DNA from: a virus
DNA: 64,000 nt
Strand: one strand, 5' to 3'
Virus record (IMG/VR): IMGVR_UViG_3300042971_000032
The notes under the pieces were generated by a model, which was not told the origin of the DNA, did not search any database, and was given only the letters and a program-made list of their open reading frames with translations. Numbering within the stretch: the first letter of the stretch is position 1; every line of letters starts with the position of its first letter. Below, one piece after another: positions 6,552 to 25,368 of the stretch. The position numbers and the translations under genes are program-made.

Positions 6552-6565
6552 GGGAGGGGATACCA

Positions 6566-6889: not shown

Positions 6890-6891
6890 TC

Positions 6892-7250: not shown

Positions 7251-7276
7251 TTGCAAGGAAAGAGGAGGAGAAGATC

Positions 7277-8239: not shown

Positions 8240-8260
8240 CATATCAATACACATGATGGC

Positions 8261-8290
8261 GGGTGTCCTTCGGGATGCCCGTTATTTTTT
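8261..8290 (+). terminator. Intrinsic terminator after endolysin
   Basis: CGGGTGTCC-TTCG-GGATGCCCG hairpin followed by a T-run. Confidence 0.8.
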
Positions 8291-8301
8291 TGCCTCATTC
8301 C

Positions 8302-8572: not shown

Positions 8573-8612
8573 ATTCCTGTATCGACGACCAAAGCGCAAA
8601 AGGAGATCAGAA

Positions 8613-9050
8613 ATGGCAAGAAAGATATCAGATGAAGAATTGGAGCAGGCAGTCCTGCTCAGAACAAACGGCATGAGTTATCGGAAAATCTCGGATTACA
8701 CCGGCCTCAATACAGAGGCTGTCCGGTATCGCTGCAAGGACCTGCCGTGCGACGATGCACCCGTCTTGGAAGGCGTGCTCACGAAGATCGAGCGCAGGGA
8801 AGCCTGCGCTTTTTGCGGAAAGCCCATCACACAGGATGAGCACCACCCGGGCAGACGGAAGCGCTTCTGCTGCGAGGCATGCCGCAGAAAGTACTGGAAG
8901 CTGCACCGGGATGAGCAGAAGAAAAAGCCCTCTGCGATCTACGTCAAGGTGTGCCCGTACTGCGGGAAGACCTTCGAGGTCTACGGCAACAGGAACCGGA
9001 AGTATTGCTGCCATGAGCACTATGTCCTCGACTACTTCGGGAAAGGCTAA
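8613..9050 (+). CDS. HTH + Cys-rich zinc-finger protein
   Basis: N-terminal HTH-like segment (GMSYRKISDYTGL), CxxC motifs (CAFCGK, CCEACR, CPYCGK), AGGAG RBS. Confidence 0.75.
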   Translation: MARKISDEELEQAVLLRTNGMSYRKISDYTGLNTEAVRYRCKDLPCDDAPVLEGVLTKIERREACAFCGKPITQDEHHPGRRKRFCCEACRRKYWKLHRDEQKKKPSAIYVKVCPYCGKTFEVYGNRNRKYCCHEHYVLDYFGKG

Positions 9051-9152
9051 GTTCCGATGATGCCCTTTATATAAATAAGGAAGAGAGGACCAAAAATGAC
9101 TTGATACTATTGCACTTCAGAGTGATCTATAGACTACCGAAAGGAGGCAATC

Positions 9153-9953
9153 ATGGAGATAACGACAACTATCACAGACAGGGCTGCACTGGTGCAGCTT
9201 TTGAAAAATGAGATAAAACAGCCCGTCGAATATGCCGGTGCTCCGACTTTCAACTACAGTGTCGGACCGTACACAGTTCTCCGGAACGCCAGCATCCGGG
9301 TAGATGATGACAAAGCGAGTCCAGCGCTGATCCAGAAGATGCAGGAGCTTGGATACGTCGCGAAGGACGACAGCTCCTCCGGGATGGGATTTGACATTGG
9401 CGGGGATGCCCTGACAAGAGTGAACCTTGTAAACACATTCGCGGCAAGGGGCTCGCTTATCAACAAGGCGATAGGCAAGCCGAATGCCTTCTATGTAGCG
9501 GCAGCGCTGGTACGGGTGCTGAAGGACAATCCTCCGGAGGACCTTTTCGAATTCAATGAAGCATTCATCGCCTGCGGAGGAGATAAAGCTCTGAAGGGCA
9601 TCACATTCCTGAAGGAAAAGGTAGTCTTCACCGGATTCCCGGATGGGCGTTCTGAAGAGGAGAAAGAGGCATTCCGTGATTTCGCAGAGACGATCACTGC
9701 CGCTTGCCGGCATTCCAAATGGCTGAAGGGTGATGCACCGGAAGTGGAGAACGAAAAGTACACCTTCCGCAGTTGGATGAACAGCATGGGACTTTCCGGG
9801 AAAAAACATACGGCAACGAGGCGTATCCTGCTCGAGCGCCTTTCCGGTGACAGTTCTTTCCGGACACCCGAGCAGAGAGCAGCGGCGCTTGCCAAGCAGA
9901 AAAAGAAGGAGGAAGAGCGTGACAACAAGCCAGATTTCATTGTCCTCGGCTGA
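9153..9953 (+). CDS. Hypothetical protein of recombinase module (paralogue of 47124-47834)
   Basis: GGAGG RBS; C-terminal ENEKY..R....G.SG....RRILL..LSG segment shared with two prophage-2 proteins. Confidence 0.7.
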   Translation: MEITTTITDRAALVQLLKNEIKQPVEYAGAPTFNYSVGPYTVLRNASIRVDDDKASPALIQKMQELGYVAKDDSSSGMGFDIGGDALTRVNLVNTFAARGSLINKAIGKPNAFYVAAALVRVLKDNPPEDLFEFNEAFIACGGDKALKGITFLKEKVVFTGFPDGRSEEEKEAFRDFAETITAACRHSKWLKGDAPEVENEKYTFRSWMNSMGLSGKKHTATRRILLERLSGDSSFRTPEQRAAALAKQKKKEEERDNKPDFIVLG

Positions 9954-11448
9954 TGCCGACAGTCATGTGATCCTTCTTCCTCATATCGAGAAGCCAAAGG
10001 ATCACAGGATACGGGCAGCGGTGTATTGCCGGGTATCGAGCAAGCACGAGGATCAGGAATATTCCCTCGAGAATCAGATCCGGCATTACCGGGAGACGAT
10101 CGGAGAAGACGGGCGCTACGAGCTTGTCGAGATCTACTACGACTTTGGTATCTCGGGATTCAAGGAAGCAAGGCCCGGGTTCCAGCGGATGCTCGAAGAA
10201 TCGAAAGACGGGAAGTTTGAGCTGGTCATCACGAAGTCCATCACCCGCTTTGCCCGGAACACAGCCACGGTGCTCGATGCCACAAGACTCCTGAAGAGCC
10301 GGGGCATCGGTGTGTTCTTCGAGCTGCAGCAGATCAACACCCTAGGGGAAGGCGGAGAGCTGCTCATGACACTGTTTGCTGCATTCGGACAGGCCGAGAG
10401 CGAATCCAACCGCCTCGGCACAAAGATGACGATCAAACGGAAGGTAGAGAAGCAGGAAGCCATCCAGCAGATCCAGCGGGTGTTCGGCTACACGAAGAAT
10501 GCAGATGGTGAGATCGTTCCGGATGAGAACGCAGGCCGCGTGCTGGAAATCTTCGAGATGGCAGCGGATGGATTCACAGTAGGGCAGATCACAAACTACC
10601 TGAACAGTGAGGGTGTGACGACAAAGCGGGGAGCTAAGTTCTACCGCACCACGGTGACAAGGATCCTCACGAACGAGGAGTACAAAGGTGACTTCGTGCA
10701 GTTCAAACACTACTCGGATGAACACCGGAAGGAGAGAAAGAACGCCGGAGAGCACGCCATGATCTATTATGCAGAGAATCATCCGCCGATCGTGACGAAT
10801 GAACTCTGGGAGAAAGCACAGCAGGCGCTTGGCGTCCGGCAGAATCCCAAGCCGGAACCGGAGGAAAAGCCCTTGCTCGACACGCTCCCATATCGGCATC
10901 AACTGTTCTGCGCGAAGTGCGGTCACCGGCTGATGCGTTCCTACACCGGAGGGAAGAACCGCTGGATCTGCTCGGGAAAAGAGAGGTTCAGCAGTGACTT
11001 CTGCTCCGGTGTTTCTATTCCCGACGAGGTGGTGAAGAGCTGGGGAGACTTTCCGGAAGACCGGTACATCAGCGAAACAACCGACCGGGGCCGGGTCACT
11101 GGTTTCACCTATGAGGACGGCGATACCTGGCATAAGAGCCATACGCGTAAGCGGCATGTCACGAAGGCACCTGCACTTACAGAAGAAAATTATCCCTATA
11201 AGGACCGGGTTTACTGCAAATACTGCGGAGGAAGGCTCCGGCGCATCATCGGAAACAACGGAAGCGTCTTCTGGATCTGCAACACGATGAGCCGGTATGG
11301 CAAGGATATCTGCAAGGGTGTTCGGGTGCCGGATGAGATGCTTCAATCTCTCCGCGATTACCCGGGCATCGTCTACATTGGAAAGGAGAACATTGATGGC
11401 AAGGAGCGTTACGGTTATTCCCGCCAGCCAGACAAGAAAATCAGCTGA
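9919..11448 (+). CDS. Large serine recombinase 1 (resolvase + recombinase + zinc-ribbon domains)
   Basis: AAVYCRVSS catalytic motif, ITKSITRFARN, Cys motifs; GTG start after GGAGG. Confidence 0.92.
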   Translation: MTTSQISLSSADADSHVILLPHIEKPKDHRIRAAVYCRVSSKHEDQEYSLENQIRHYRETIGEDGRYELVEIYYDFGISGFKEARPGFQRMLEESKDGKFELVITKSITRFARNTATVLDATRLLKSRGIGVFFELQQINTLGEGGELLMTLFAAFGQAESESNRLGTKMTIKRKVEKQEAIQQIQRVFGYTKNADGEIVPDENAGRVLEIFEMAADGFTVGQITNYLNSEGVTTKRGAKFYRTTVTRILTNEEYKGDFVQFKHYSDEHRKERKNAGEHAMIYYAENHPPIVTNELWEKAQQALGVRQNPKPEPEEKPLLDTLPYRHQLFCAKCGHRLMRSYTGGKNRWICSGKERFSSDFCSGVSIPDEVVKSWGDFPEDRYISETTDRGRVTGFTYEDGDTWHKSHTRKRHVTKAPALTEENYPYKDRVYCKYCGGRLRRIIGNNGSVFWICNTMSRYGKDICKGVRVPDEMLQSLRDYPGIVYIGKENIDGKERYGYSRQPDKKIS

Positions 11449-12775
11449 GGCGGAAAAGAAAAAGATACGGGTGGCAGCCTACTGCCGGGTATCAACGGAG
11501 CAGGAAGAACAGCTCGGATCCTTTGAGAATCAGGTGAGCTACTACACCGAGCTCATCAACAGCAAGCCCGACTGGGTGATGGCCGGGATCTTCTCGGACG
11601 AGGGCATTTCCGGCACCGGGACGAAGAAGCGTCAGGGCTTCCAGAACATGATCAGGGCCTGCCGCGAGGGAAAGGTTGATCGGGTGATTACGAAGTCAAT
11701 ATCCAGATTCGCTCGTAACACCGCTGACTGTCTGCATTACTCAAGAGAGCTGAAGGACCTCGGCATCCCCATTTTCTTCGAGAAGGAAGGGATAGATACG
11801 ATGGCGGCATCGGGTGAGCTGCTCTTCACGATCCTGTCCTCCCTTGCGCAGGAGGAGAGCCGGAACATTTCGGAGAATACCACATGGGGCATCCGGTCGA
11901 AATTCAAACAGGGTGTTCCGATGATTAACACTGGAAACTTCATGGGCTATGACAAAGACGAGAATGGGAAGCTGGTCATCAATCCTGAGCAGGCCAAGGT
12001 GGTGAAGCGAATCTTTCGGGAGTTCCTTGAGGGCTGGTCCACGCGGGAGATTGCACAGCGGCTCAACAGGGAGAAGATTCCCGGTGTGTCCGGCAAGGCA
12101 AAGTGGAATGGCTTCACCATCGAGCGTATGCTTCAGAATGAGAAATACAAGGGAGACCTCCTGATGCAGAAAACCTTCACGGCTGATTACCTCACCAAGA
12201 AGATGGTGGAGAACAACGGTGAACGGGATCAGTACTATGTGCAGGGAAACCACGAAGCGATTGTTTCTCCGGATGATTGGGAAGCAGCTCAGTTTGAGTT
12301 GAAACGGCGAGAAGGCTTCATGGAGAGCCACGGCATCAAGGAGATCAGCAGCCTTACCGGGACGGCATTCTACAATAAGGTCTATTGCGGCAAATGCGGC
12401 TGCAAGATGCAGCGGAGAAACCCGAAAGGAAATAAGCCATTCTGGAAATGCCTGAATACGGATAAGCGGAACGGCTATACCTGCGATGCAGGGAATGTTC
12501 GGGAGTCAGATCTTCGACAGGCCTTCGTCATCGCTTGGAACAGCCTTGTCGAGAACAGGGAGACGGAGCTGCCGCGCTGGAAGAAGATGATGGAATCAGA
12601 GAATGCTCTGGAACGCCTGAGAGGTCGACAGATGATCGAGCTCACGGCAGAAGGGCACTTGGACTTCGAAATCCCGGAACTCACCCGTATGGTTCTTGAT
12701 GAGGTCAGAGTCACCGATCCTAAGAGCTTTACGGTCAAGTTGCTGGATGGGACGGTGCGGAATATCAAGCTCTGA
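11396..12775 (+). CDS. Large serine recombinase 2
   Basis: AAYCRVST, ITKSISRFARN, CGKCG zinc ribbon; AGGAG RBS. Confidence 0.93.
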   Translation: MARSVTVIPASQTRKSAEAEKKKIRVAAYCRVSTEQEEQLGSFENQVSYYTELINSKPDWVMAGIFSDEGISGTGTKKRQGFQNMIRACREGKVDRVITKSISRFARNTADCLHYSRELKDLGIPIFFEKEGIDTMAASGELLFTILSSLAQEESRNISENTTWGIRSKFKQGVPMINTGNFMGYDKDENGKLVINPEQAKVVKRIFREFLEGWSTREIAQRLNREKIPGVSGKAKWNGFTIERMLQNEKYKGDLLMQKTFTADYLTKKMVENNGERDQYYVQGNHEAIVSPDDWEAAQFELKRREGFMESHGIKEISSLTGTAFYNKVYCGKCGCKMQRRNPKGNKPFWKCLNTDKRNGYTCDAGNVRESDLRQAFVIAWNSLVENRETELPRWKKMMESENALERLRGRQMIELTAEGHLDFEIPELTRMVLDEVRVTDPKSFTVKLLDGTVRNIKL

Positions 12776-12791
12776 GAAGGAGAGGAATGCA

Positions 12792-12821
12792 GCCCTGCCC
12801 GGTTGTGGCGGGGCCTTTTTT
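12792..12821 (+). terminator. Intrinsic terminator after recombinases
   Basis: GCCCTGCC...GGCGGGGC hairpin followed by a T-run. Confidence 0.7.
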
Positions 12822-13122
12822 CATCACTACCGATGTTGTGGGAAAGTGCATTTTTGCAAAGGTAGTCTTTCATTACGCGCATATAGTGTGTATAATTATA
12901 GTTTAGGAAAATAGTATCCAATAACTGATAATAGTGTTCAGAAATACCGATGAAGTGTGACTGGCAATAGCTGGTACCTTGGAAATTGAACAGGGAGGGC
13001 ACCTCTCCCATCATAGAGGGCAGATGCGCAGGAGAGGGCACAAAGTGGATTTACTAATATGCGCATAAGTCTGCAACACAATATATGGCATAGACAACGC
13101 ATAATCATAGGTAAAACCACAA

Positions 13123-13165
13123 GATATTGTGGCAGAAATGTGCCGGGCGTGCTGGTCGCGATCTC
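13123..13165 (+). other. Putative attR of prophage 1 (crossover GG at 13146-13147)
   Basis: Identity to the intact pilin gene (16745 onward) begins exactly at this GG; upstream sequence is non-pilin and follows the recombinase genes. Confidence 0.75.
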
Positions 13166-13511
13166 GATTCCGATCTTCACATCGCAGTTGGAGAAGAGCA
13201 GGGATGCTGTAACGCTGTCCAATATCAGGGCCGCATATGCTCAGGCACAGACTGCGGAGTTGACGGAGTCAAGTGACCCCACTAACAAGGTTACTTACAC
13301 CAAGAAAGGTGATGGGACTTCAACAGTTAAGGTAGAAGGTGTTGTTTCAAAAGGAACGCATGATGGACTAAATAATCTTGACCAGCTTCCGTTTGGCGAT
13401 AAGGTAAATGCATGGACCGCGAAGGCTAGTCTTGGTGGAACGCCTAAATCTTGGAATATTACATTTACCTATGATACAAATGGTGCAATCACCGCAGTAA
13501 TCGCTGAATAA
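13146..13511 (+). pseudogene. 5'-truncated type IV pilin (body A, lacks prepilin leader and FTLxE)
   Basis: Identical to 16745-17110 but preceded by non-pilin DNA. Confidence 0.88.
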
Positions 13512-13530
13512 CTTAGACACGAAGTCTAAA

Positions 13531-13564
13531 AAGAAGCCCTCCGGAGCAATCTGGAGGGTTTCTT
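13531..13564 (+). terminator. Terminator hairpin after pilin body A (copy at 17130-17163)
   Basis: AAGAAGCCCTCCGGA-gcaa-TCTGGAGGGTTTCTT. Confidence 0.8.
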
Positions 13565-13955
13565 CATATCAGAACCTAATTACGCGCGCCTGTCCATTGG
13601 TCTGTAGAACCCTTGTACTTTTGCACAGAATGAGGCTGTTTTCCACGGATTTCGGAACCTGCGGGCGTAATTAAAATTTTTCCTACGATGCGGTTCATCA
13701 AAAGCATGGATGGAGCGGCTCTCGGGTCCGCAAACAGCACGATCTTAGCGTGGACAAATGCGCAGAATAAGGCCATTTTCCGCAGATTTTGATACCTTGG
13801 GGCGTAATTAGATTTACTCCAACGATGACCAGATCGGATATATTCAAGGACTTGCATCATCACATGCTGCTTGCACAATAGTGCGTGATGAGCCTCGTTT
13901 CCGCAAATCAGCGGTATCCTGTGGCAGTATAATGGAACGGGAGGAGTGATGCTCA

Positions 13956-14504
13956 ATGAAAAAGAATAAGAAGGGCTTTACATTAGCGGAGCTCCTTATC
14001 GTGGTCGCCATCATTGCTGTGCTTGTCGCAATATCCATACCGATCTTTGCAAGACAGAAACTGAAGGCACAGGAAGCTGTCGATAAGGCTAATCTTCGTG
14101 CTGCATATGCAGAAGTGATGGCAGCTGCAGCATCCGATCCGGACCATTCGTGGTATGTGCCGGTTAAAATGACGCATAAAGGAAATTACGGAGTGAATAA
14201 TACGAGACAATTCTATTTAGCGTCAAGTGATGAGACGATTGCTGGTATTAATACTGCTGGAATTAATCATCCAAATGAGGGAACAGATAATACTTTATTT
14301 GTTGTCCTATATACTTCAGAGCAGGCAAAAATACTGGCAGAGCACAAAGGAGCATATGGGCATTATTATTTTTTACTGTTAGGACGCCAATATCCCGGCG
14401 CCAATTCGGATGATGAGCGATGGGTAGAGAATCCAGTGGTAGTAATAGCACAGGGTATTCCGGATAATATACACATTGATTTAGATATTGAGGAAGTAAA
14501 GTAA
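13956..14504 (+). CDS. Type IV prepilin (pilin 2)
   Basis: KKG|FTLAELLIVVAIIAVLVAISIP class III signal peptide. Confidence 0.92.
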   Translation: MKKNKKGFTLAELLIVVAIIAVLVAISIPIFARQKLKAQEAVDKANLRAAYAEVMAAAASDPDHSWYVPVKMTHKGNYGVNNTRQFYLASSDETIAGINTAGINHPNEGTDNTLFVVLYTSEQAKILAEHKGAYGHYYFLLLGRQYPGANSDDERWVENPVVVIAQGIPDNIHIDLDIEEVK

Positions 14505-14540
14505 ACTTATAGCCATTACTATTTATGGGAGGGACCACAG

Positions 14541-15044
14541 TTGAAGAAGAAATTGCATAAAGGCTTCACCCTCGCGGAACTCCTCATCGTGGTCGCCATC
14601 ATTGCTGTGCTTGTTGCCATCAGCATTCCGATCTTTACCTCCCAGCTCAGAAAGGCACGGCTGGCAGTGAACCAAGCCAATGCAAGAGCGGGAGAGGCAG
14701 CAGCCTGTGCTGCATATCTTGAGGACCCTTCCTATGATCTCATTGCGTATGATATCCGCTCTGGGAAGGTGGCAAAGTCGAAAACGTCCAATGATGAAAA
14801 TACGATAGTTAAAGAGCTGAACATAGGAGACAAAAGAAACATGGGATCCTATAAAGCCGATTATAATAAAATCCCTAATGATATATCTTCATGGACAGTA
14901 AGCACACATTTGACGAACAACGATGCTTATAAATTAGGAGATTATTATTTCTACCACTATATCTGCACGTTCAATAATGATGGAACCATTAAGCAGATTC
15001 AAGCGAATGATAATCACAAGTCGCAACCCAAGGATCCATATTGA
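14541..15044 (+). CDS. Type IV prepilin (pilin 3)
   Basis: HKG|FTLAE motif; TTG start after GGGAGG. Confidence 0.92.
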   Translation: MKKKLHKGFTLAELLIVVAIIAVLVAISIPIFTSQLRKARLAVNQANARAGEAAACAAYLEDPSYDLIAYDIRSGKVAKSKTSNDENTIVKELNIGDKRNMGSYKADYNKIPNDISSWTVSTHLTNNDAYKLGDYYFYHYICTFNNDGTIKQIQANDNHKSQPKDPY

Positions 15045-15093
15045 TGTGAGAAATCAGCGGTGAGCCGAGACAACGGAAGGAAGGTGACTGCGG

Positions 15094-15573
15094 ATGAAGA
15101 GAAAACAGAATAAAGGCTTCACACTTGCGGAATTATTAATTGTGGTCGCCATCATTGCTGTGCTCGTTGCGATCTCTATACCGATCTTCAGTAACCAACT
15201 TAGGAAAGCAAGGTTTGCTACAAATCTGGCAAATGCAAGAGCTGCAAAAGCTGCAGTGATTGCAGGTTATTTTGATACAAATGGGACAAGAATACATTGG
15301 AATTATGACACTAAAACCGGAACCGCTATTAAGCCATGGTATGATAATGCACTTGACCGTCAATCTCCGCAAAGCATGAAAGATCGTGGATTACCCCTTG
15401 AACGGGCCGTTATCTTAGGCTGGATACAGAGCGACCCTGCGGATTGGAACTCTCATTCTGAGAAGGACCTGAACGGTCAAGATCTAAGATTACTTGGCGA
15501 TCAGGTATATAGTACGATAGGAGTAGATCTTAACGAGGATGGAACAGTAAAATACTATTATTTCTACAAATAA
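15094..15573 (+). CDS. Type IV prepilin (pilin 4)
   Basis: NKG|FTLAE motif. Confidence 0.92.
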   Translation: MKRKQNKGFTLAELLIVVAIIAVLVAISIPIFSNQLRKARFATNLANARAAKAAVIAGYFDTNGTRIHWNYDTKTGTAIKPWYDNALDRQSPQSMKDRGLPLERAVILGWIQSDPADWNSHSEKDLNGQDLRLLGDQVYSTIGVDLNEDGTVKYYYFYK

Positions 15574-15663
15574 TATATGATTGTCGATCCAAGTGTTCAC
15601 ATACAGATTTAAGAATGAATGTAATGTGATGCTGATTTTTTCAGTGTGGAGGAGGAATGTCAG

Positions 15664-16128
15664 ATGAAGAGAAAAATGAATAAAGGCTTCACTCTTGCGG
15701 AACTCCTGATTGTGGTCGCCATCATAGCTGTGCTCGTGGCGATATCCATACCGATCTTCAGTAATCAGATTAAAAAAGCTCGACTTGCCACCAATCAGGC
15801 AAATGCCAGAGCTGCATATGCGGCATGGGTTGCTCAGTATATAGATGAGGGGATGCCGTTTCGTAAGGGTAGTGTTTATTATATTTATGATACAACGACC
15901 GGTAAAATCTCATCCTATACCTGGAGTGCTCGGAATTTTGGTGCTGAAGTTTGCAATTCGAACATGGATCAACCTATTACGGATATTTCTGCTTGGAAGA
16001 CAACAACCCGGGCAAATAAACCTGAGCGAAATTTAGGATCAAACGTCTACAAGTATTGGCAGATAAGAGTTACGGATGGAGAATTGTCTGCATATTATGC
16101 GTATCTCTATCCATCAGGTGACTATTAA
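15664..16128 (+). CDS. Type IV prepilin (pilin 5)
   Basis: NKG|FTLAE motif; ATG after GGAGG (alternative GTG at 15646). Confidence 0.92.
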   Translation: MKRKMNKGFTLAELLIVVAIIAVLVAISIPIFSNQIKKARLATNQANARAAYAAWVAQYIDEGMPFRKGSVYYIYDTTTGKISSYTWSARNFGAEVCNSNMDQPITDISAWKTTTRANKPERNLGSNVYKYWQIRVTDGELSAYYAYLYPSGDY

Positions 16129-16155
16129 AAGAGTAATGAGTAAAGAGATATTGGT

Positions 16156-16614
16156 ATGAAACACAGCGTGAAGAGAAAACAGAATAAAGGTTTCACTCTA
16201 GCGGAGCTCCTTATCGTGGTCGCCATCATTGCTGTGCTCGTTGCAATCAGCATACCGATCTTCAGTAAGCTGGTGCAGAAGGCAAGACTCGCCGCAAATC
16301 AGGCAAACGCCAGAGCTGCATATGCCGCGGTAGAAGCGGAATACATCACCAATAATCCTTCAGCGATGGATCCAGTGAGCGAAACTTATTACACTTATGA
16401 TGCATCGACAGGCAAGATAAAGATAATAAGATCAATTGGCGGCGGATATATGTCCGTTGGTGACGATAACTCAACTCCTTCATCTTGGTTGACATCTACA
16501 AGGATCGGTGGACATTGGGATTGGACCCTTGGCCAGCATGTATATAAGAAATGGTTGCTGGTTGTCAATAATGTAAGTGGGAAGGTAAGGGAATACATGG
16601 TATATCATGATTAG
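16156..16614 (+). CDS. Type IV prepilin (pilin 6)
   Basis: NKG|FTLAE motif. Confidence 0.92.
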   Translation: MKHSVKRKQNKGFTLAELLIVVAIIAVLVAISIPIFSKLVQKARLAANQANARAAYAAVEAEYITNNPSAMDPVSETYYTYDASTGKIKIIRSIGGGYMSVGDDNSTPSSWLTSTRIGGHWDWTLGQHVYKKWLLVVNNVSGKVREYMVYHD

Positions 16615-16650
16615 CTTTTAACTTTTTTAGATATGGAACTTTCACAACAT

Positions 16651-16672
16651 TGGTATGCTTATGGTAGGGAGG
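16651..16672 (+). promoter_or_regulatory. Extended -10 promoter and RBS for the IIGVL pilin (copy at 20250-20271)
   Basis: TG-G-TATGCT followed by GGGAGG; no clear -35. Confidence 0.45.
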
Positions 16673-16675
16673 TAG

Positions 16676-17110
16676 GTGACCATCATGAAAAACAAGAATA
16701 AAGGCTTCACACTTGGGGAACTCCTCATTGTGGTCGCCATCATCGGCGTGCTGGTCGCGATCTCGATTCCGATCTTCACATCGCAGTTGGAGAAGAGCAG
16801 GGATGCTGTAACGCTGTCCAATATCAGGGCCGCATATGCTCAGGCACAGACTGCGGAGTTGACGGAGTCAAGTGACCCCACTAACAAGGTTACTTACACC
16901 AAGAAAGGTGATGGGACTTCAACAGTTAAGGTAGAAGGTGTTGTTTCAAAAGGAACGCATGATGGACTAAATAATCTTGACCAGCTTCCGTTTGGCGATA
17001 AGGTAAATGCATGGACCGCGAAGGCTAGTCTTGGTGGAACGCCTAAATCTTGGAATATTACATTTACCTATGATACAAATGGTGCAATCACCGCAGTAAT
17101 CGCTGAATAA
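16676..17110 (+). CDS. Type IV prepilin, leader + body A (candidate major pilin; contains intact attB-like site)
   Basis: NKG|FTLGELLIVVAIIGVL; short Ala/Thr/Gly-rich body; followed by a terminator. Confidence 0.9.
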   Translation: MTIMKNKNKGFTLGELLIVVAIIGVLVAISIPIFTSQLEKSRDAVTLSNIRAAYAQAQTAELTESSDPTNKVTYTKKGDGTSTVKVEGVVSKGTHDGLNNLDQLPFGDKVNAWTAKASLGGTPKSWNITFTYDTNGAITAVIAE

Positions 17111-17554
17111 CTTAGACACGAAGTCTAAAAAGAAGCCCTCCGGAGCAATCTGGAGGGTTTCTTCATATCAGAACCTAATTACGCGCGCCTGTCCATTGGT
17201 CTGTAGAACCCTTGTACTTTTGCACAGAATGAGGCTGTTTTCCACGGATTTCGGAACCTGCGGGCGTAATTAAAATTTTTCCTACGATGCGGTTCATCAA
17301 AAGCATGGATGGAGCGGCTCTCGGGTCCGCAAACAGCACGATCTTAGCGTGGACAAATGCGCAGAATAAGGCCATTTTCCGCAGATTTTGATACCTTGGG
17401 GCGTAATTAGATTTACTCCAACGATGACCAGATCGGATATATTCAAGGACTTGCATCATCACATGCTGCTTGCACAATAGTGCGTGATGAGCCTCGTTTC
17501 CGCAAATCAGCGGTATCCTGTGGCAGTATAATGGAACGGGAGGAGTGATGCTCA

Positions 17555-18103
17555 ATGAAAAAGAATAAGAAGGGCTTTACATTAGCGGAGCTCCTTATCG
17601 TGGTCGCCATCATTGCTGTGCTTGTCGCAATATCCATACCGATCTTTGCAAGACAGAAACTGAAGGCACAGGAAGCTGTCGATAAGGCTAATCTTCGTGC
17701 TGCATATGCAGAAGTGATGGCAGCTGCAGCATCCGATCCGGACCATTCGTGGTATGTGCCGGTTAAAATGACGCATAAAGGAAATTACGGAGTGAATAAT
17801 ACGAGACAATTCTATTTAGCGTCAAGTGATGAGACGATTGCTGGTATTAATACTGCTGGAATTAATCATCCAAATGAGGGAACAGATAATACTTTATTTG
17901 TTGTCCTATATACTTCAGAGCAGGCAAAAATACTGGCAGAGCACAAAGGAGCATATGGGCATTATTATTTTTTACTGTTAGGACGCCAATATCCCGGCGC
18001 CAATTCGGATGATGAGCGATGGGTAGAGAATCCAGTGGTAGTAATAGCACAGGGTATTCCGGATAATATACACATTGATTTAGATATTGAGGAAGTAAAG
18101 TAA
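17555..18103 (+). CDS. Type IV prepilin (pilin 2, copy 2)
   Basis: Identical protein to 13956-14504. Confidence 0.92.
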   Translation: MKKNKKGFTLAELLIVVAIIAVLVAISIPIFARQKLKAQEAVDKANLRAAYAEVMAAAASDPDHSWYVPVKMTHKGNYGVNNTRQFYLASSDETIAGINTAGINHPNEGTDNTLFVVLYTSEQAKILAEHKGAYGHYYFLLLGRQYPGANSDDERWVENPVVVIAQGIPDNIHIDLDIEEVK

Positions 18104-18139
18104 ACTTATAGCCATTACTATTTATGGGAGGGACCACAG

Positions 18140-18643
18140 TTGAAGAAGAAATTGCATAAAGGCTTCACCCTCGCGGAACTCCTCATCGTGGTCGCCATCA
18201 TTGCTGTGCTTGTTGCCATCAGCATTCCGATCTTTACCTCCCAGCTCAGAAAGGCACGGCTGGCAGTGAACCAAGCCAATGCAAGAGCGGGAGAGGCAGC
18301 AGCCTGTGCTGCATATCTTGAGGACCCTTCCTATGATCTCATTGCGTATGATATCCGCTCTGGGAAGGTGGCAAAGTCGAAAACGTCCAATGATGAAAAT
18401 ACGATAGTTAAAGAGCTGAACATAGGAGACAAAAGAAACATGGGATCCTATAAAGCCGATTATAATAAAATCCCTAATGATATATCTTCATGGACAGTAA
18501 GCACACATTTGACGAACAACGATGCTTATAAATTAGGAGATTATTATTTCTACCACTATATCTACACGTTCAATAATGATGGAACCATTAAGCAGATTCA
18601 AGCGAATGATAATCACAAGTCGCAACCCAAGGATCCATATTGA
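18140..18643 (+). CDS. Type IV prepilin (pilin 3, copy 2; Cys>Tyr variant)
   Basis: HYIYTF vs HYICTF in copy 1. Confidence 0.92.
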   Translation: MKKKLHKGFTLAELLIVVAIIAVLVAISIPIFTSQLRKARLAVNQANARAGEAAACAAYLEDPSYDLIAYDIRSGKVAKSKTSNDENTIVKELNIGDKRNMGSYKADYNKIPNDISSWTVSTHLTNNDAYKLGDYYFYHYIYTFNNDGTIKQIQANDNHKSQPKDPY

Positions 18644-18692
18644 TGTGAGAAATCAGCGGTGAGCCGAGACAACGGAAGGAAGGTGACTGCGG

Positions 18693-19172
18693 ATGAAGAG
18701 AAAACAGAATAAAGGCTTCACACTTGCGGAATTATTAATTGTGGTCGCCATCATTGCTGTGCTCGTTGCGATCTCTATACCGATCTTCAGTAACCAACTT
18801 AGGAAAGCAAGGTTTGCTACAAATCTGGCAAATGCAAGAGCTGCAAAAGCTGCAGTGATTGCAGGTTATTTTGATACAAATGGGACAAGAATACATTGGA
18901 ATTATGACACTAAAACCGGAACCGCTATTAAGCCATGGTATGATAATGCACTTGACCGTCAATCTCCGCAAAGCATGAAAGATCGTGGATTACCCCTTGA
19001 ACGGGCCGTTATCTTAGGCTGGATACAGAGCGACCCTGCGGATTGGAACTCTCATTCTGAGAAGGACCTGAACGGTCAAGATCTAAGATTACTTGGCGAT
19101 CAGGTATATAGTACGATAGGAGTAGATCTTAACGAGGATGGAACAGTAAAATACTATTATTTCTACAAATAA
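18693..19172 (+). CDS. Type IV prepilin (pilin 4, copy 2)
   Basis: Identical protein to 15094-15573. Confidence 0.92.
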   Translation: MKRKQNKGFTLAELLIVVAIIAVLVAISIPIFSNQLRKARFATNLANARAAKAAVIAGYFDTNGTRIHWNYDTKTGTAIKPWYDNALDRQSPQSMKDRGLPLERAVILGWIQSDPADWNSHSEKDLNGQDLRLLGDQVYSTIGVDLNEDGTVKYYYFYK

Positions 19173-19262
19173 TATATGATTGTCGATCCAAGTGTTCACA
19201 TACAGATTTAAGAATGAATGTAATGTGATGCTGATTTTTTCAGTGTGGAGGAGGAATGTCAG

Positions 19263-19727
19263 ATGAAGAGAAAAATGAATAAAGGCTTCACTCTTGCGGA
19301 ACTCCTGATTGTGGTCGCCATCATAGCTGTGCTCGTGGCGATATCCATACCGATCTTCAGTAATCAGATTAAAAAAGCTCGACTTGCCACCAATCAGGCA
19401 AATGCCAGAGCTGCATATGCGGCATGGGTTGCTCAGTATATAGATGAGGGGATGCCGTTTCGTAAGGGTAGTGTTTATTATATTTATGATACAACGACCG
19501 GTAAAATCTCATCCTATACCTGGAGTGCTCGGAATTTTGGTGCTGAAGTTTGCAATTCGAACATGGATCAACCTATTACGGATATTTCTGCTTGGAAGAC
19601 AACAACCCGGGCAAATAAACCTGAGCGAAATTTAGGATCAAACGTCTACAAGTATTGGCAGATAAGAGTTACGGATGGAGAATTGTCTGCATATTATGCG
19701 TATCTCTATCCATCAGGTGACTATTAA
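19263..19727 (+). CDS. Type IV prepilin (pilin 5, copy 2)
   Basis: Identical protein to copy 1. Confidence 0.92.
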   Translation: MKRKMNKGFTLAELLIVVAIIAVLVAISIPIFSNQIKKARLATNQANARAAYAAWVAQYIDEGMPFRKGSVYYIYDTTTGKISSYTWSARNFGAEVCNSNMDQPITDISAWKTTTRANKPERNLGSNVYKYWQIRVTDGELSAYYAYLYPSGDY

Positions 19728-19754
19728 AAGAGTAATGAGTAAAGAGATATTGGT

Positions 19755-20213
19755 ATGAAACACAGCGTGAAGAGAAAACAGAATAAAGGTTTCACTCTAG
19801 CGGAGCTCCTTATCGTGGTCGCCATCATTGCTGTGCTCGTTGCAATCAGCATACCGATCTTCAGTAAGCTGGTGCAGAAGGCAAGACTCGCCGCAAATCA
19901 GGCAAACGCCAGAGCTGCATATGCCGCGGTAGAAGCGGAATACATCACCAATAATCCTTCAGCGATGGATCCAGTGAGCGAAACTTATTACACTTATGAT
20001 GCATCGACAGGCAAGATAAAGATAATAAGATCAATTGGCGGCGGATATATGTCCGTTGGTGACGATAACTCAACTCCTTCATCTTGGTTGACATCTACAA
20101 GGATCGGTGGACATTGGGATTGGACCCTTGGCCAGCATGTATATAAGAAATGGTTGCTGGTTGTCAATAATGTAAGTGGGAAGGTAAGGGAATACATGGT
20201 ATATCATGATTAG
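19755..20213 (+). CDS. Type IV prepilin (pilin 6, copy 2)
   Basis: Identical protein to 16156-16614. Confidence 0.92.
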   Translation: MKHSVKRKQNKGFTLAELLIVVAIIAVLVAISIPIFSKLVQKARLAANQANARAAYAAVEAEYITNNPSAMDPVSETYYTYDASTGKIKIIRSIGGGYMSVGDDNSTPSSWLTSTRIGGHWDWTLGQHVYKKWLLVVNNVSGKVREYMVYHD

Positions 20214-20274
20214 CTTTTAACTTTTTTAGATATGGAACTTTCACAACATTGGTATGCTTATGGTAGGGAGGTAG

Positions 20275-21135
20275 GTGACCATCATGAAAAACAAGAATAA
20301 AGGCTTCACACTTGGGGAACTCCTCATTGTGGTCGCCATCATCGGAGTACTGGTTGCAATATCCATCCCGATCTTTACCTCTCAGCTCGAGAAAGCCAGA
20401 GAAGCAACGGACGCGGCGAATATTCGATCACAGTATGCAGAGGTGATGGCAGAGGCAATAACCGATGGCGGCGATGTAAACGGCATGGATATGTTCGGTG
20501 CCGTGGTGCTCAAGCAGAAGAAAGATCAATGGCAGAGCGCAGGGCTAAAGAAAAATCTGGAAGGTGTATATCAGAGCATAGAAGGTGACTATCCGAAAGC
20601 TGGCGGCACTGCTTGGGTTGAGTATAAGAATGACAAGGTGATCCTTCACTATGGAGACGGAAGTGGAAATGCTGGTGGAGGAAGTACCGGAGGTGAAAAC
20701 ACTGGTGACGGAAGTGGCTCCGGCTCTTTAGCAAATCCAGATGAGATTAATTCGAGTACACAACTTCCTAATGCTTTCAATACCTCGATAAATGATTGGG
20801 ATAAAATCGTAAGTAATAATCCAAGTTATAATATTGTTCCAGGAATGGTATACGGCTACCAAGGATCAATTTACTTCGGTACAAGCAATACAGAAGTTAA
20901 GAATGATCAGTATACTCACCAGGGTTTGAATGACGCTGTTGCTTGGTTTGCTGCAGCAAAATATACTGGAAAAATTTGGAGCTCATCTGATTTTGAAAAT
21001 CAGAGATATGATATTACCAGAGGAGATATCTGTAAGGTTGGTAAGGATTATTATGTTTTCAAAGATGGTGGCAATACATCATCCGGACCAGAGAAAGCAA
21101 GCTGGCAATGGCAAAAGATTAACCTGAATGAATAA
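20275..21135 (+). CDS. Type IV prepilin, leader + body B with Gly/Ser linker and extra C-terminal domain
   Basis: Same leader as 16676 up to GG 20344-5, then a unique 286-aa product. Confidence 0.9.
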   Translation: MTIMKNKNKGFTLGELLIVVAIIGVLVAISIPIFTSQLEKAREATDAANIRSQYAEVMAEAITDGGDVNGMDMFGAVVLKQKKDQWQSAGLKKNLEGVYQSIEGDYPKAGGTAWVEYKNDKVILHYGDGSGNAGGGSTGGENTGDGSGSGSLANPDEINSSTQLPNAFNTSINDWDKIVSNNPSYNIVPGMVYGYQGSIYFGTSNTEVKNDQYTHQGLNDAVAWFAAAKYTGKIWSSSDFENQRYDITRGDICKVGKDYYVFKDGGNTSSGPEKASWQWQKINLNE

Positions 21136-21491
21136 GATCGTTATAAAGTTCACATCCCGTATCCCAGTCATCCTTTTGCCTCCGAAAGCCCGGACTGCTT
21201 CCCGGATTTTAAAACCGTGGACTGGGGCTTTATGTGCACTCAGAAAGCACCCTCAGTAGAGCGGCTTTACCATCATTCGGTGTGTTGCCGACAATGGTTG
21301 AGCGCGAGAATACAGTCAAGTTATCGGGGTGTTTGTGAAAGGAATAGATGGCGGTGCGGGATGAATGCCTGCATCGCTTTTTCGTCCTCATCAGTTTTGA
21401 TTACACATGTTCATTTTTCAGAGCTCAATGTCCGGCGTTCATGGTATACTGATTTTATCCAATCATTTTTTACACGCGGGGGACTGCTGCT

Positions 21492-23825
21492 ATGATTCTT
21501 GATAAAAAGCAGATGACCGAGGAGGATATCAAGCTCAATTACATCACGCCTGCCATCAACCGGAGCGGGTGGGTGAATGGCGTCAACATCACCATGGAGA
21601 CGAGGATCACGGATGGACGGATCAATCTCCGTGGCAACATGGCATATCGTGAAAACCCTAAGAAGGTCGATTATCTTCTCTATTTGAACAAATATCATCC
21701 GATTGCTGTTGTGGAAGCAAAGGATAATACACACACGGCCGGTTTTGGCATGCAACAGGCGATGACCTATGCCCAGATGCTGGATGTCCCTTTTGCGTAC
21801 AGTTCCAATGGCGATGCGTTTTTAGAGCATGACTTTCTGACTGGTCAAGAGCGGCAGATTGCAATGGATGCGTTTCCCTGTCAGGAGGAACTGCTCAAAA
21901 GATACCAGCAGAATGTGAATGACGGAAAGGGCCTGAATGAAGAGGAGACAAAGCTCATTGAGCAGCCCTACTACTCCAGTCCGTCTCTTTATTCGCCGAG
22001 GTATTATCAGCGCAATGCGGTGAACCGCACGCTCGATGCTATCGCTCGCGGACAGAATCGTATTCTTCTTGTGATGGCGACTGGTACCGGCAAGACTTAC
22101 ACGGCTTTTCAGATTGTTTACCGTCTGTTGAAGAGCGGGGTGAAAAAGAAAGTCCTTTACCTTGCGGACCGCAACAATCTGGTCGATCAGTCGATTCAGC
22201 GGGATTTTGCTCCGCTCGCAGGGGTTACTCACAAGGTTAACTTTGCAAAAGACAGCAAAGACACGATCACTTCCTATCAGGTTTATTTTGCTCTCTACCA
22301 GCAGCTGGTCGGGGACAACGATCAGGAGCACTACAGTGAACTCTTTGATCCGGAGTTCTTCGATCTCATCATTGTCGATGAGTGCCACCGCGGCTCCGCA
22401 AAGGAGGACAGCAGATGGCGCAGGATTCTGGACTACTTCCGTGACGCCACCCAGATCGGTATGACCGCGACACCAAAAGAGACGGAGTATGTTTCGAATA
22501 CCACCTATTTTGGTGAACCAGTTTACAGCTACAGCCTGAAGGAAGGTATCGATGATGGATTCCTTGCGCCATTCAAGGTGTATGGGATAACGCTGAACAT
22601 TTCCGATGGTTGGAGACCGTATAAGGGTCAGAAGGACTACTACGGTAATGAGATCGAGGACCGGATTTATAACAATACGGACTACGACTACAACATCATC
22701 CTCGCGGACCGAATTCAGGAGGTCGCCTTCCGGATTACCGAGTTTCTGAAGGCTACGGACCGGATGCAGAAGACGATTGTATTCTGCGCGACAGAAGCCG
22801 CAGCGGAACGGATGCGGGAGGCACTCGTCAACCTGAATACGGACATGGTAAAGCAGAACCCGGACTATGTGGTTCGCATTACCGGAAACGATGACTACGG
22901 GAATAGTAAGCTGGACTATTTCATCTCGGTATCGAGCAAATATCCGGTGATCGCAACGACCTCAGAATTGCTCTCGACCGGAACCGACTGCAAGATGACA
23001 AAGCTCATTGTCATTGACAAGAACGTCAACTCCATGACACAGTTCAAGCAGATGATCGGGCGAGGGACCAGAGTGCGCGAGGACCAGGGTAAGCTGTTCT
23101 TCACAATCATGGACTTCCGGGGCGTGGCGAGGCTCTTCGCTGATCCGGACTGGGATGGCCCGGTGGAGATCAACGAGAACTTTGAGCCCGGGCAGGGTGA
23201 CCGCTCGCCGGTTAAGGTGGAACCAGACAAACCGCCTGTGGAAAAACCACCAATGCCCTACGTGGACGCGAGTGGTTGTCCGGTAGACGTTGTCAGGGAA
23301 ACGGTCTCTGTCTATGATTCAGGAGGCAAGCTCCTTCGGCAGGAGAACATTATCGACTATACGAGAAGAAACATTCGTGGCGATTATGCGGATCTTGGCG
23401 CATTTGTGCGCAGATGGTCGCAGGCCGATAAGAAGGAAGCAATCTCTGAAGAGCTAAAGAAACATGGCATCGACCTTGAGAAGATGAAAAAGGATCAGCA
23501 CATGGAGGACGTGGATGATTTCGATTTTATTACTCACGTTGCCTATGACCAGAAGCCGCTGACGAGAAAAGAACGCGCAGAGAACGTCAAGAAGAGCGAC
23601 TTCCTGCACAAGTACAGTGGTGTGGCGCAGGAAATCATTGAGGCGTTGCTCGAACGGTATGCCAATGAAGGCATTTACGAAATCGAGCGGAAGGAAATCT
23701 TGAAGCTGGATCCTTTCCGGAAACTTGGCTCTCCTGCGCGGATTGCAAAGTATTTCGGCGGGAAGGAAGGATATCTTAAGGCGGTGCATGAGCTGGAATC
23801 GGCGATCTACATGCAGGCCTTATGA
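21492..23825 (+). CDS. hsdR: Type I restriction enzyme R subunit
   Basis: VVEAK nuclease motif, MATGTGKT Walker A, DECH box, C-terminal LERY...LDPFRKLG segment. Confidence 0.93.
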   Translation: MILDKKQMTEEDIKLNYITPAINRSGWVNGVNITMETRITDGRINLRGNMAYRENPKKVDYLLYLNKYHPIAVVEAKDNTHTAGFGMQQAMTYAQMLDVPFAYSSNGDAFLEHDFLTGQERQIAMDAFPCQEELLKRYQQNVNDGKGLNEEETKLIEQPYYSSPSLYSPRYYQRNAVNRTLDAIARGQNRILLVMATGTGKTYTAFQIVYRLLKSGVKKKVLYLADRNNLVDQSIQRDFAPLAGVTHKVNFAKDSKDTITSYQVYFALYQQLVGDNDQEHYSELFDPEFFDLIIVDECHRGSAKEDSRWRRILDYFRDATQIGMTATPKETEYVSNTTYFGEPVYSYSLKEGIDDGFLAPFKVYGITLNISDGWRPYKGQKDYYGNEIEDRIYNNTDYDYNIILADRIQEVAFRITEFLKATDRMQKTIVFCATEAAAERMREALVNLNTDMVKQNPDYVVRITGNDDYGNSKLDYFISVSSKYPVIATTSELLSTGTDCKMTKLIVIDKNVNSMTQFKQMIGRGTRVREDQGKLFFTIMDFRGVARLFADPDWDGPVEINENFEPGQGDRSPVKVEPDKPPVEKPPMPYVDASGCPVDVVRETVSVYDSGGKLLRQENIIDYTRRNIRGDYADLGAFVRRWSQADKKEAISEELKKHGIDLEKMKKDQHMEDVDDFDFITHVAYDQKPLTRKERAENVKKSDFLHKYSGVAQEIIEALLERYANEGIYEIERKEILKLDPFRKLGSPARIAKYFGGKEGYLKAVHELESAIYMQAL

Positions 23826-23835
23826 GGAATAATAG

Positions 23836-25368
23836 ATGAGCGATTTAGGAAGTTTTGTAAAACGGCTGAGAGACATCATGCGGAATGACGCAGGTATCAA
23901 TGGTGATGCCCAGCGGATCGAGCAGATCGCATGGATCCTGTTTCTGAAGGTCTACGACGCACAGGAGGAGAACTGGGAATTCGATCAGGAGGATTATGTC
24001 TCGATCATTCCGGAGGAGTGCCGCTGGCGCAACTGGGCAGTAGATGATGGAAAAGGCAATGCTCTGACCGGAGATCAGCTGCTCGATTTTGTGAACAACC
24101 GGCTGTTTCCGGTACTCAAGGGAACAGATGTAAAGGACGCAAGCGGAAACATTCTCCTGCATGGCATCCAGGTTGACAGGGACACACCCATCAATAAGGC
24201 GATTGTGCAGGCAACCTTTCAGGATGCCAACCAGTACATGAAGGACGGCGTTCTTCTCCGACAGGTGATTAATGTCATCGACAGCGTGGACTTTGGAAGC
24301 TATGAAGACAGCCACGCCTTTGGCGACATCTATGAGTCTATTTTGAAGGAGCTGCAGAGCGCAGGTTCCGCAGGTGAGTTCTACACGCCCCGTGCCGTCA
24401 CGGACTTCATGGCGGAGATGATCAAGCCGAAGATCGGCGAGCATATGGCGGATTTTGCGTGTGGCACGGGTGGATTCATGGTGAGCTGGCTGACAGAGCT
24501 TTCCAGACAGGTGAAGGATACGGAGGATTCCAAGGCGCTCAGTGAGTCTATCTATGGCATGGAGAAAAAACAGTTCCCGTACATGCTCTGCGTCACCAAC
24601 CTTCTGCTGCATGGTGTGGATGTACCGAGGGTGTATCACGGGAACTCCCTGATGCACGACGTTCTTGATTACACGGAGAAGGACCAGTTTGACGTGATCC
24701 TGATGAATCCGCCCTATGGAGGTTCCGAGAAAAACGACGTGAAGAACCACTTTCCCTCGGAACTTGCAAGCTCCGAGACAGCGGATCTTTTCATGTCGGT
24801 CATCATGTACCGCTTAAAGCAGGGCGGCAGAGCAGCCGTTATCCTGCCGGATGGGTTTTTATTTGGTACCGATAATACGAAGGTGGCAATTAAGAAAAAG
24901 CTCTTGACGGAGTTCAACCTGCACACCATCATTCGGATGCCAGGCAGCGTTTTCTCGCCGTATACGTCCATCACGACCAATATCCTGTTCTTCGATCATA
25001 CCGGCGCGACCAAGGAAACCTGGTTCTATCGTCTTGACATGCCGGAGGGCTACAAGCACTTTAGTAAGACCAGGCCAATGAAATCCGAGCACTTTGATCC
25101 GGTGCGTGAGTGGTGGAACAACCGGACGGAGATCAAGGATCAGGACACCGACACATGGAAGGCAAAGAAGTACACCGCACAGGAGATCGCAGACGGCGGA
25201 TTCAACCTGGATCTCTGCGGCTATCCGCATGAGGAAGAGGAGATCCTTGCGCCGCTCGATCTGATCCAGCAGTATCAGGAGAAACGCGCCAGTCTGAACG
25301 CGGAGATCGATCATGTACTTGATGAGATCGTGGCGCTTCTGCCGCATGACGAGGGAGGAGAACAGTGA
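23836..25368 (+). CDS. hsdM: Type I R-M methyltransferase subunit
   Basis: GEFYTPR, DFACGTGG and NPPY motifs. Confidence 0.95.
   Translation: MSDLGSFVKRLRDIMRNDAGINGDAQRIEQIAWILFLKVYDAQEENWEFDQEDYVSIIPEECRWRNWAVDDGKGNALTGDQLLDFVNNRLFPVLKGTDVKDASGNILLHGIQVDRDTPINKAIVQATFQDANQYMKDGVLLRQVINVIDSVDFGSYEDSHAFGDIYESILKELQSAGSAGEFYTPRAVTDFMAEMIKPKIGEHMADFACGTGGFMVSWLTELSRQVKDTEDSKALSESIYGMEKKQFPYMLCVTNLLLHGVDVPRVYHGNSLMHDVLDYTEKDQFDVILMNPPYGGSEKNDVKNHFPSELASSETADLFMSVIMYRLKQGGRAAVILPDGFLFGTDNTKVAIKKKLLTEFNLHTIIRMPGSVFSPYTSITTNILFFDHTGATKETWFYRLDMPEGYKHFSKTRPMKSEHFDPVREWWNNRTEIKDQDTDTWKAKKYTAQEIADGGFNLDLCGYPHEEEEILAPLDLIQQYQEKRASLNAEIDHVLDEIVALLPHDEGGEQ

Follow-up and report, generated by a model that had tools for sequence, protein, structure and literature searches.

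The 64,000-nucleotide stretch of DNA in IMG/VR virus record IMGVR_UViG_3300042971_000032 (the window) holds a cluster of type IV pilin genes between the end of one prophage and the beginning of another. Comparison with related loci indicates that a GG dinucleotide, in the glycine codon of the pilin motif ...AIIGVL..., serves as the 2-bp crossover of a family of temperate gut and rumen phages that encode two adjacent large serine recombinases, and that these phages integrate in the pilin DNA encoding the conserved N-terminal helix. The assignment of the GG as an attachment (att) site, and of a reshuffling of pilin bodies behind a leader at that site, is well founded. The explanation taken as a whole, in which GG is the crossover, the recombinases made a hybrid pilin gene in the window, and the last pilin body came with the second prophage, is judged reasonably probable.

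Three Junctions at One GG

Three junctions in the window switch partner at a single GG in the Gly codon of IIGVL, with the sequences that had been read in an initial annotation of this DNA. Junction J1, at 13146-7, reads TGTGCCG-GG-CGTGCTGG and joins a phage arm to a pilin body, body A. J2, at 16745-6, reads ATCATC-GG-CGTGCTGG and joins a pilin leader to body A, and J3, at 20344-5, reads ATCATC-GG-AGTACTGG and joins the leader to a second body, body B. The segments 13146-16746 and 16745-20345 are tandem direct copies with a period of 3,599 bp, overlapping in the GG alone. They differ at a single one of 3,599 bases (14965 G vs 18564 A), a substitution that alters the second pilin at residue 142 (C142Y). 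The phage arm left of 13146 does not resemble the leader; past 20345, bodies B and A diverge at the very next base. The duplication, including the one base difference, is found again in a 2.29 Mb contig from another sample (L098), and a one-off assembly error is therefore unlikely.

The codon at the crossover is GCT (Ala) in all ten copies of the five inner pilins, which bears out the earlier reading that these genes lack the GG, and is GGC or GGA in the two outer pilins. PF07963, the prepilin leader/N-methylation domain of type IV pilins, is present in all seven leader-bearing genes. The displaced copy of body A is part of a 150-residue open reading frame (13059-13511) that begins at an in-frame ATG in the phage arm and has no prepilin leader. 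Because the corresponding arm carries a stop codon in relatives, this frame is probably fortuitous. Rfam searches disclosed no RNA gene at the junctions or downstream of body B.

A Phage Arm Joined to Many Bodies

J1 can be firmly assigned, from its counterparts elsewhere, as the attR of prophage 1. The phage half-site (P arm) lies 370 bp past recombinase 2, and a near-identical P arm joins other bodies at this GG in other genomes, in agreement with the initial annotation. In the IMG/VR proviruses L001, L003, L004, L005, and L006, whose recombinase 2 is 69-78% identical to that of the window, this codon is again the point at which a phage arm gives way to a pilin body without a leader, and the junction lies a few hundred bases beyond the recombinase pair. 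In closer relatives, with recombinase 2 97% identical and the P arm near-identical, the GG leads into five further bodies. These include a body of 110 residues that is followed by YfhO in a 3.33 Mb genome, bodies of 120 and 157 residues, and one of 97 residues (body 97) that recurs in four samples. Recombinase 2 of these close relatives is one identical 459-residue protein across the loci compared. L106, which equals L247 base for base, is particularly informative: its phage is 97% identical to prophage 1 over 5.9 kb, and similarity to the window stops about 50 bp past the GG, which indicates that the body belongs to the target and not to the phage. The proposal that the recombinase site reshuffles pilin heads behind a leader is supported.

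Some distant relatives of the recombinase pair are joined instead to Ala-type bodies (arm|AVLVAISIPIF; L113/L006 at 13033 and 15548, L115 at 15960, L165 at 11724), and the Ala/GC variant of the site may be the target of other phages. In Lactimicrobium (L113/L006) two arm|body junctions are stacked 2.5 kb apart behind one recombinase pair.

Related phage sequences recur in different genomes. An identical 122-residue tail protein (window 62650-63018; L190/L194/L239) is encoded in the 2.29 Mb and 3.33 Mb genomes; the 3.33 Mb genomes also encode the 459-residue recombinase 2, 97% identical to that of the window; and a Lachnospiraceae metagenome-assembled genome (L106) has a near-identical phage end. 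These matches suggest one phage type in unrelated hosts, a spread that is perhaps owed to the very conserved pilin stretch that forms the target.

The Recombinase Pair

The initial annotation had placed two large serine recombinases just upstream of the junctions, and both are found there (Table 1). They match PF00239 (Resolvase) with E values of 1.7e-29 and 5.5e-36, and both contain PF07508 and PF13408 and match phrog_95, which is annotated as integrase. Among solved full-length structures, that of the SPbeta integrase is closest. The two proteins of the pair share 34% identity, and the catalytic YCRVS motif with its nucleophilic serine is kept in both. The pair is conserved in all relatives examined, streptococcal ones included, and five other pilin junctions are accompanied by a recombinase that matches recombinase 2 at 97% identity. 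The catalytic serine domain, the Recombinase and zinc ribbon domains, and a site at a prophage end with a 2-bp center are the features of a large serine integrase; two adjacent and diverged large serine recombinases that are conserved together are a feature of CcrAB-like systems.

A Blautia locus with recombinases amid pilins (L115) was considered as a domesticated system and rejected, since it is decayed: its recombinase 1 is truncated and its P arm is interrupted by 4.2 kb of inserted DNA. In GenBank "Heliusvirales" phages the recombinases share 52% identity with recombinase 2 but are not flanked by pilin sequence, and these phages were uninformative.

A Second Three-Way Switch Next to feoB

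An orphan pilin downstream of feoB offers an independent case, with three arrangements about the same GG. In the first (G011 contig 27), the feoB-linked leader continues into a body N to give a complete 151-residue pilin. In the second (L249), the leader continues into body 97, which is followed by a gene for a 196-residue protein, a UmuC-like gene, ImmA, and Xre. In the third (L247, and the identical L106 of G011), the recombinase pair and P arm precede body 97 and the same downstream genes. L249 and L247 are 99.98% identical over 5.8 kb, starting exactly at the GG, and L249 and G011 are 99.7% identical over 3.1 kb, ending at the GG. Judged from these alignments, one of the two leader junctions is the product of a GG exchange with a partner bearing a complete in-frame body. 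Either of them could be the empty site; the search with body N returned just a 1.8 kb contig. The 196-residue neighbor of body 97 has no relatives among viral contigs.

The Ancestral Pilin Cluster and the Origin of J2

Relatives of the pilin cluster reveal what the locus may have looked like before the duplication. In L100/L101 (NCBI name Solobacterium sp.), pilM, pilB, pilT, and pilC are followed by an intact first pilin with a body like body A, the same spacer, and further pilins; beyond these come a leader|body B gene (95% identical), a terminator, and restriction genes, and then a phage that shares 88-91% identity with prophage 2. L217 and L220 have pilC, the first pilin, the spacer, and pilins, and no phage. 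L100, L217, and L220 each have a single unit, with the first pilin directly behind pilC. These single-unit relatives imply that the ancestor of the window had one unit and that prophage 1 occupies the first pilin after pilC. A repeat of the form X-B-B-Y descends from X-B-Y, and J2 is thus the new joint rather than an ancestral site.

A homologous exchange would have required the leaders of the first and last pilins to match. The first-pilin leader of L100 and L217 has many differences from the window leader, and the last block common to both before the crossover is ATCATCGG, of 8 nt. Because no more than ATCATCGG is shared, a homologous crossover would need to fall within about 10 nt. The partners that recombined are the only two of the seven pilins with GG at the center of the site; the inner five have GC. 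With so short a shared block before the GG, homologous recombination is a poor explanation, and action of a recombinase on two resident sites is the best one. A recombinase origin of the duplication and of J2, as opposed to homologous recombination, is likely on these comparisons.

In many relatives a leaderless pilin body lies on the opposite strand, convergent with the first pilin (L003, L104, L105, L109, L217, and G008:C2 at 185,000-185,406). The arm that precedes this inverted body translates as ...WTGARNSAEQVTNTCLR|GVLVAISIPIF. The window retains a remnant of the arm only, with a further remnant stretch at 13751-13810 and again at 17350-17409. Such an inverted body may represent a cassette capable of inversion, or else a scar left by some other element.

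Body B and the Left End of Prophage 2

J3 is probably the attL of prophage 2. The initial annotation had seen no other candidate, and indeed the window has no leader-type half-site beyond 20345 on the right. Because one end of such phages is a P arm joined to a leaderless body, the leader must sit at the other end. The most complete view is provided by Oribacterium (G008:C2), where a whole prophage can be read: pilC, a 141-residue pilin, the inverted leaderless cassette, a 286-residue pilin, the terminator, restriction genes, the phage, the recombinase pair, the P arm joined to a leaderless body, and three more pilins, with no other leader between. The only leaders to the left of that prophage continue into in-frame pilin bodies. 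The order leader|body, terminator, restriction or defense genes, and phage or phage-like DNA is also found in L100, L105, and G011 contig 43. A different arrangement is seen in another Oribacterium prophage (L237, G008:C1 7905-8843), in which a complete 312-residue body-B-like pilin with its own leader lies on the opposite strand, between the lysin and the recombinase pair.

On these grounds it seems rather probable that body B arrived with prophage 2. The attL assignment of 20344 is favored by elimination and is tempered by body-B-type genes with the same terminator beside host genes (L104, L244). Tracing the relatives of body B, as had been suggested, likewise gave a divided answer, since they occur with a phage like prophage 2 (L100) and also at the phage-free L104 and L244. 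The earlier statement that prophage 2 begins right after body B did not hold, in that the 247 bp past the stop codon, as far as the terminator, are shared with phage-free loci. The predicted joint P arm|body B is not in the window. Scans for the P arm, which were narrow, found none in viral contigs and two integrated copies, in metagenome contigs only. No useful relatives of body B were found in viral contigs or GenBank phages, and a search for an empty site in the Oribacterium G008 family gave no close relative.

The Pilin Proteins

The hybrid gene encodes a 141-residue pilin with body A, and the gene with body B a pilin of 283 residues. The model of the latter shows a C-terminal domain with predicted local distance difference test (pLDDT) values of 83-93, in addition to a long N-terminal helix and a linker rich in Gly and Ser. 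The C-terminal domain (window 20725-21132) is 80-89% identical among many pilins that differ in the preceding region. Language-model neighbors with a score of 0.8 and Foldseek matches to Vibrio chitin deacetylases (E = 0.02) offer two weak leads that it may resemble carbohydrate-binding domains of the CBM5/12 type. Pfam assigns no domain to body A or to the C-terminal part of body B and does not support the CBM5/12 lead. PHROGs includes phage pilin families that match the N-termini of these proteins.

Layout of the Window

Coordinates are collected in Table 1. From 21492 onward the window is the left and middle of prophage 2, which carries a type I restriction system and genes for an S24 repressor, a DUF2800 nuclease, a family A polymerase, and a VapE-like primase, followed by those for packaging, head, and tail. 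The tape-measure region of prophage 2 (60581-63018) is 77.5% identical to window 6-2443 in prophage 1. With the two ends of the window only 77.5% alike, the prophages are two separate, related phages, and a circular-contig or wrap-around artefact is ruled out. The virus record nearest to the window (G001) begins at about window 29,700 and does not cover the left end.

Table 1. Coordinates of features in the window
Feature	Position	Strand	Remarks
Prophage 1, right end	1-13145		Tape measure and tail genes, then GH25 endolysin, then two overlapping recombinase genes
Endolysin of prophage 1 (GH25 + CW_7 + LysM)	7277-8239	+	Pfam; marks lysis module just ahead of integration module
Large serine recombinase 1 (first of pair)	9847-11448	+	Resolvase, Recombinase, and Zn_ribbon_recom domains; YCRVS motif
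Large serine recombinase 2 (second of pair, overlapping first)	11297-12775	+	Pfam domains; YCRVS motif
Terminator-like hairpin 3' of recombinase genes	12792-12814	+	
Phage half-site (P arm)	13056-13145	+	Ends ...ATATTGTGGCAGAAATGTGCCG; near base-for-base in L106, L194, L196, L239-L248
Type IV pilin genes	13146-21382		
Tandem repeat unit, copy 1	13146-16744	+	Body A, spacer, five Ala-type pilins, leader
J1, GG crossover	13146-13147	+	Phage arm | body A; assigned as attR of prophage 1
Body A, copy 1	13146-13511	+	Leaderless; assigned as displaced by prophage 1; read from phage ATG 13059
Remnant of conserved arm	13576-13677, again 17175-17276	-	Arm in relatives precedes inverted leaderless pilin cassette
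Five Ala-type (GCT) pilins, copy 1	13956-14504, 14541-15044, 15094-15573, 15646-16128, 16156-16614	+	
Hybrid pilin gene	16685-17110	+	Last pilin's leader plus body A, J2 inside; intact reading frame, ribosome-binding site
Tandem repeat unit, copy 2	16745-20343	+	
283-residue pilin	20284-21135	+	Leader plus body B, J3 inside; Gly/Ser-rich linker, folded C-terminal domain
Terminator after body B	21350-21382	+	Similarity to phage-free loci stops at 21382; restriction-block similarity to G011 starts at 21348
Type I restriction-modification genes hsdR, hsdM, hsdS	21492-26852	+	Cargo, left end of prophage 2
Prophage 2	28657-64000	+	S24 repressor, replication, packaging, head, and tail genes

Several features of prophage 2 lie apart from the pilin junctions. 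hsdS is the most divergent piece of the restriction block between strains (window 25365-26852 vs L100 15085-16569) and contains internal repeat matches (25476-25588 vs 26230-26353), which suggest exchange of target-recognition domains. Between the repressor and the restriction genes, an island of 30% G+C contains a 281-residue open reading frame (27109-27954) that has, by PHROGs, an HNH or homing-endonuclease-like C-terminus and is not present in the related L100 prophage. A pair encoding a MazE-like antitoxin and a PIN-domain toxin (59173-59927) lies within the tail block, just ahead of the tape measure; its position was deduced from the annotated genes of L190, where this phage region is identical.

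Discussion

How the window may have come about

The starting cluster would have comprised pilC, a first pilin (leader plus body A), the spacer, five Ala-type pilins without the GG, and a last pilin. Integration of prophage 1 in the first pilin produced J1, an attR in which the phage arm meets body A. J3, in which the leader of the last pilin meets body B, would be the attL of prophage 2, the body, terminator, and restriction genes having been carried on the other arm of that phage; integration of prophage 2 would then have replaced the outer domain of the pilin in frame. The phage recombinases would have made J2 at the GG, joining what lies left of it in J3 to what lies right of it in J1. It is possible that this occurred by an exchange between sister chromosomes, which would yield exactly the repeat observed, or that, within one chromosome, a 3.6 kb circle with J2 was excised and then re-inserted. 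In either case the five-pilin unit would have been duplicated, and the displaced body A would have been returned to a place behind a leader and a ribosome-binding site. A hybrid of this origin, from the attR and a second pilin site, was the second model of the initial annotation, and that part of it fits best; its other part, that body B is a plain host gene, is less probable.

Several observations weigh against this explanation. Neither the left end of prophage 1 nor the right end of prophage 2 falls within the window, so that the leader of this strain's own first pilin is not in view. For large serine integrases the usual partners are attP and attB only, or attL and attR when a directionality factor is present. 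The pairing of attR with attL or attB that J2 needs is not canonical, and would require a relaxed choice of sites by these recombinases. Indirect hints that the product sites of the pair are still substrates may be seen in the duplication itself and in the stacked leaderless bodies of L113. The origin of body B is open to similar doubt. Host GGDEF genes come after the body-B-type pilins of L104 and L244, which have the same 247-bp tail and terminator; the body ahead of this restriction block in G011 is a different one; and the G+C content of body B, 43%, is that of the host pilins, vs 52% for the phage. No free-phage junction P arm|body B was found in scans that were narrow. The terminator (21348-21382) is a seam at which different bodies and cargo join. 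Body B could thus be native. The observations for and against a phage origin would also fit a picture in which body cassettes bounded by the conserved helix and the terminator move between phages and hosts.

The strongest competing account takes up these last points. If body B were a native host gene, 20344 would be an unoccupied pilin site, and prophage 2, or a restriction-phage island, would have been joined at about 21383 in some other way, its pilin-type attL being lost or elsewhere. This is the less probable alternative but a substantial one. Similarity to the phage-free L104, and to L105, stops at the terminator, and the long pilins of L244 are followed by host genes; the base composition of body B and the restriction block behind another body in G011 point the same way. 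Against it, phage ends of the type P arm|leaderless body demand a leader at the opposite end, and none lies to the right of 20345; nor is there a leader between the pilins and the phage in Oribacterium C2. The question concerns the origin of body B alone, and a native body B is compatible with a recombinase origin of J2.

A further alternative is that, in a phage-free ancestor, the first and last pilins underwent an unequal crossover through homology of their leaders, which duplicated the unit, and that prophage 1 entered the first copy later. The GG boundaries would then merely reflect the position of the phage and the point at which bodies A and B begin to diverge. In favor of this route, the leaders are similar paralogues separated by 3.6 kb, the phage hides where the repeat stops on the left, and body-B-type genes do occur as host genes. 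We nevertheless regard this route as unlikely. The first-pilin leader of relatives, about 80% similar overall, shares 8 nt before the GG; of 21 possible pairs of pilins, exactly the two with GG recombined; and the feoB locus breaks identically without neighboring paralogues. It is very unlikely that the duplication is an assembly artefact derived from a mixture of chromosomes with excised 3.6 kb circles or body-swapped variants. Active recombinases would make such circles, which would carry exactly J2, but two assemblies from different samples have the same structure and the same base difference in the same copy. Scarcely tenable is the strict form of the annotation's first model, with three tandem target pilins in the host and 16745 as an untouched attB between two occupied sites: J2 does look like an intact target, but units that differ at one base in 3,599 form a very recent repeat and L100, L217, and L220 have one unit, its first pilin directly behind pilC, so that 16745 is instead the novel joint of a very recent duplication.

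What the exchange might mean

Type IV pili are common phage receptors and adhesins. If the outer domain is indeed replaced in frame, the phage would alter a surface structure of its host with half a gene, placed behind the host promoter and leader. A switch of receptor, or exclusion of superinfecting phages, as the initial annotation proposed, might be the purpose. A broader proposal, which we put forward tentatively and rate as somewhat short of probable, is that temperate phages whose hosts are Firmicutes of the gut and rumen bear, on one arm of attP, a cassette for a pilin body that lacks promoter and leader, and so constitute a phage-driven shufflon. If this were true, two recombinases would direct integration to conserved helix codons, and lysogeny would rewrite the exposed pilus by gene fusion, with the old body parked as a silent cassette. 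Both products look like substrates, so that bodies could be exchanged, stacked, and duplicated among Gly-type pilins. Such a system would explain the leaderless bodies in pilin clusters and the presence of Ala (GC) instead of Gly (GG) in some pilins. A target in so conserved a pilin stretch would permit integration across bacterial families, and may explain the occurrence of one phage in unrelated hosts. A recombinase pair with product sites that are still active would also interest users of genome-engineering tools.

Comparison with known systems

The closest parallel is found in Streptococcus pneumoniae, where group 2b prophages with the serine integrase Int2b lie inside comGC, the competence pilin gene, at a GG, and abolish transformation (PMC7600539). 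There, as here, a phage with a large serine recombinase sits inside a type IV pilin-like coding sequence at a GG, and the recombinases of the streptococcal prophages are 47-50% identical to recombinase 2 and likewise form an adjacent pair. No comGC remnant was found in the flanks of the streptococcal prophage loci examined. Since Int2b phages reside in comGC, pilin genes are not new as targets of this enzyme lineage. The two cases differ in outcome: comGC is reported to be simply disrupted, with loss of competence, whereas in the window the leader side reads on, in frame, through an entire pilin body that has a terminator of its own, and leader-side junctions retain a full open pilin frame. 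They differ also in the nature of the targets, which here are pilins near pilM, pilB, pilT, and pilC, in a multigene adhesive pilin cluster whose resident sites appear to have recombined into a duplication, or an orphan pilin linked to feoB. Our literature search found no report of integration that fuses a host leader to a phage-supplied pilin body, of the use of this site in adhesive pilin clusters of Lachnospiraceae or Erysipelotrichaceae, or of recombination between resident sites that gives hybrid pilins and duplications.

A second parallel concerns the product rather than the site. In Pseudomonas, the prophage-encoded pilins P-FimU and P-PilA replace parts of the pilus and block other phages (PMC12952977). 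As proposed here, a pilin supplied by the phage takes the place of the host pilin. P-FimU and P-PilA are complete and separately expressed genes, whereas here the phage part would be fused to the host leader by integration.

The layout of two recombinases and the stacked, displaced bodies recall CcrAB of staphylococcal SCCmec. CcrA and CcrB are large serine recombinases encoded side by side; their product sites stay usable, and elements stack. SCCmec inserts into the end of a conserved gene, rlmH, and supplies the codons that it replaces; it is not a phage, and its target is not a pilin.

Switching of pilin C-termini is familiar from the R64 shufflon, in which Rci acts on PilV, from the Piv inversion of Moraxella, and from pilE/pilS of Neisseria. 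Those systems share with the present one the joining of a constant leader and N-terminal helix to alternative C-terminal bodies that lack promoter and leader. They employ a tyrosine recombinase, a DEDD recombinase, or RecA-dependent gene conversion, and are programs of the host or of a plasmid. In none of them is the switch a by-product of prophage integration, as it would be in the pilin cluster described here.

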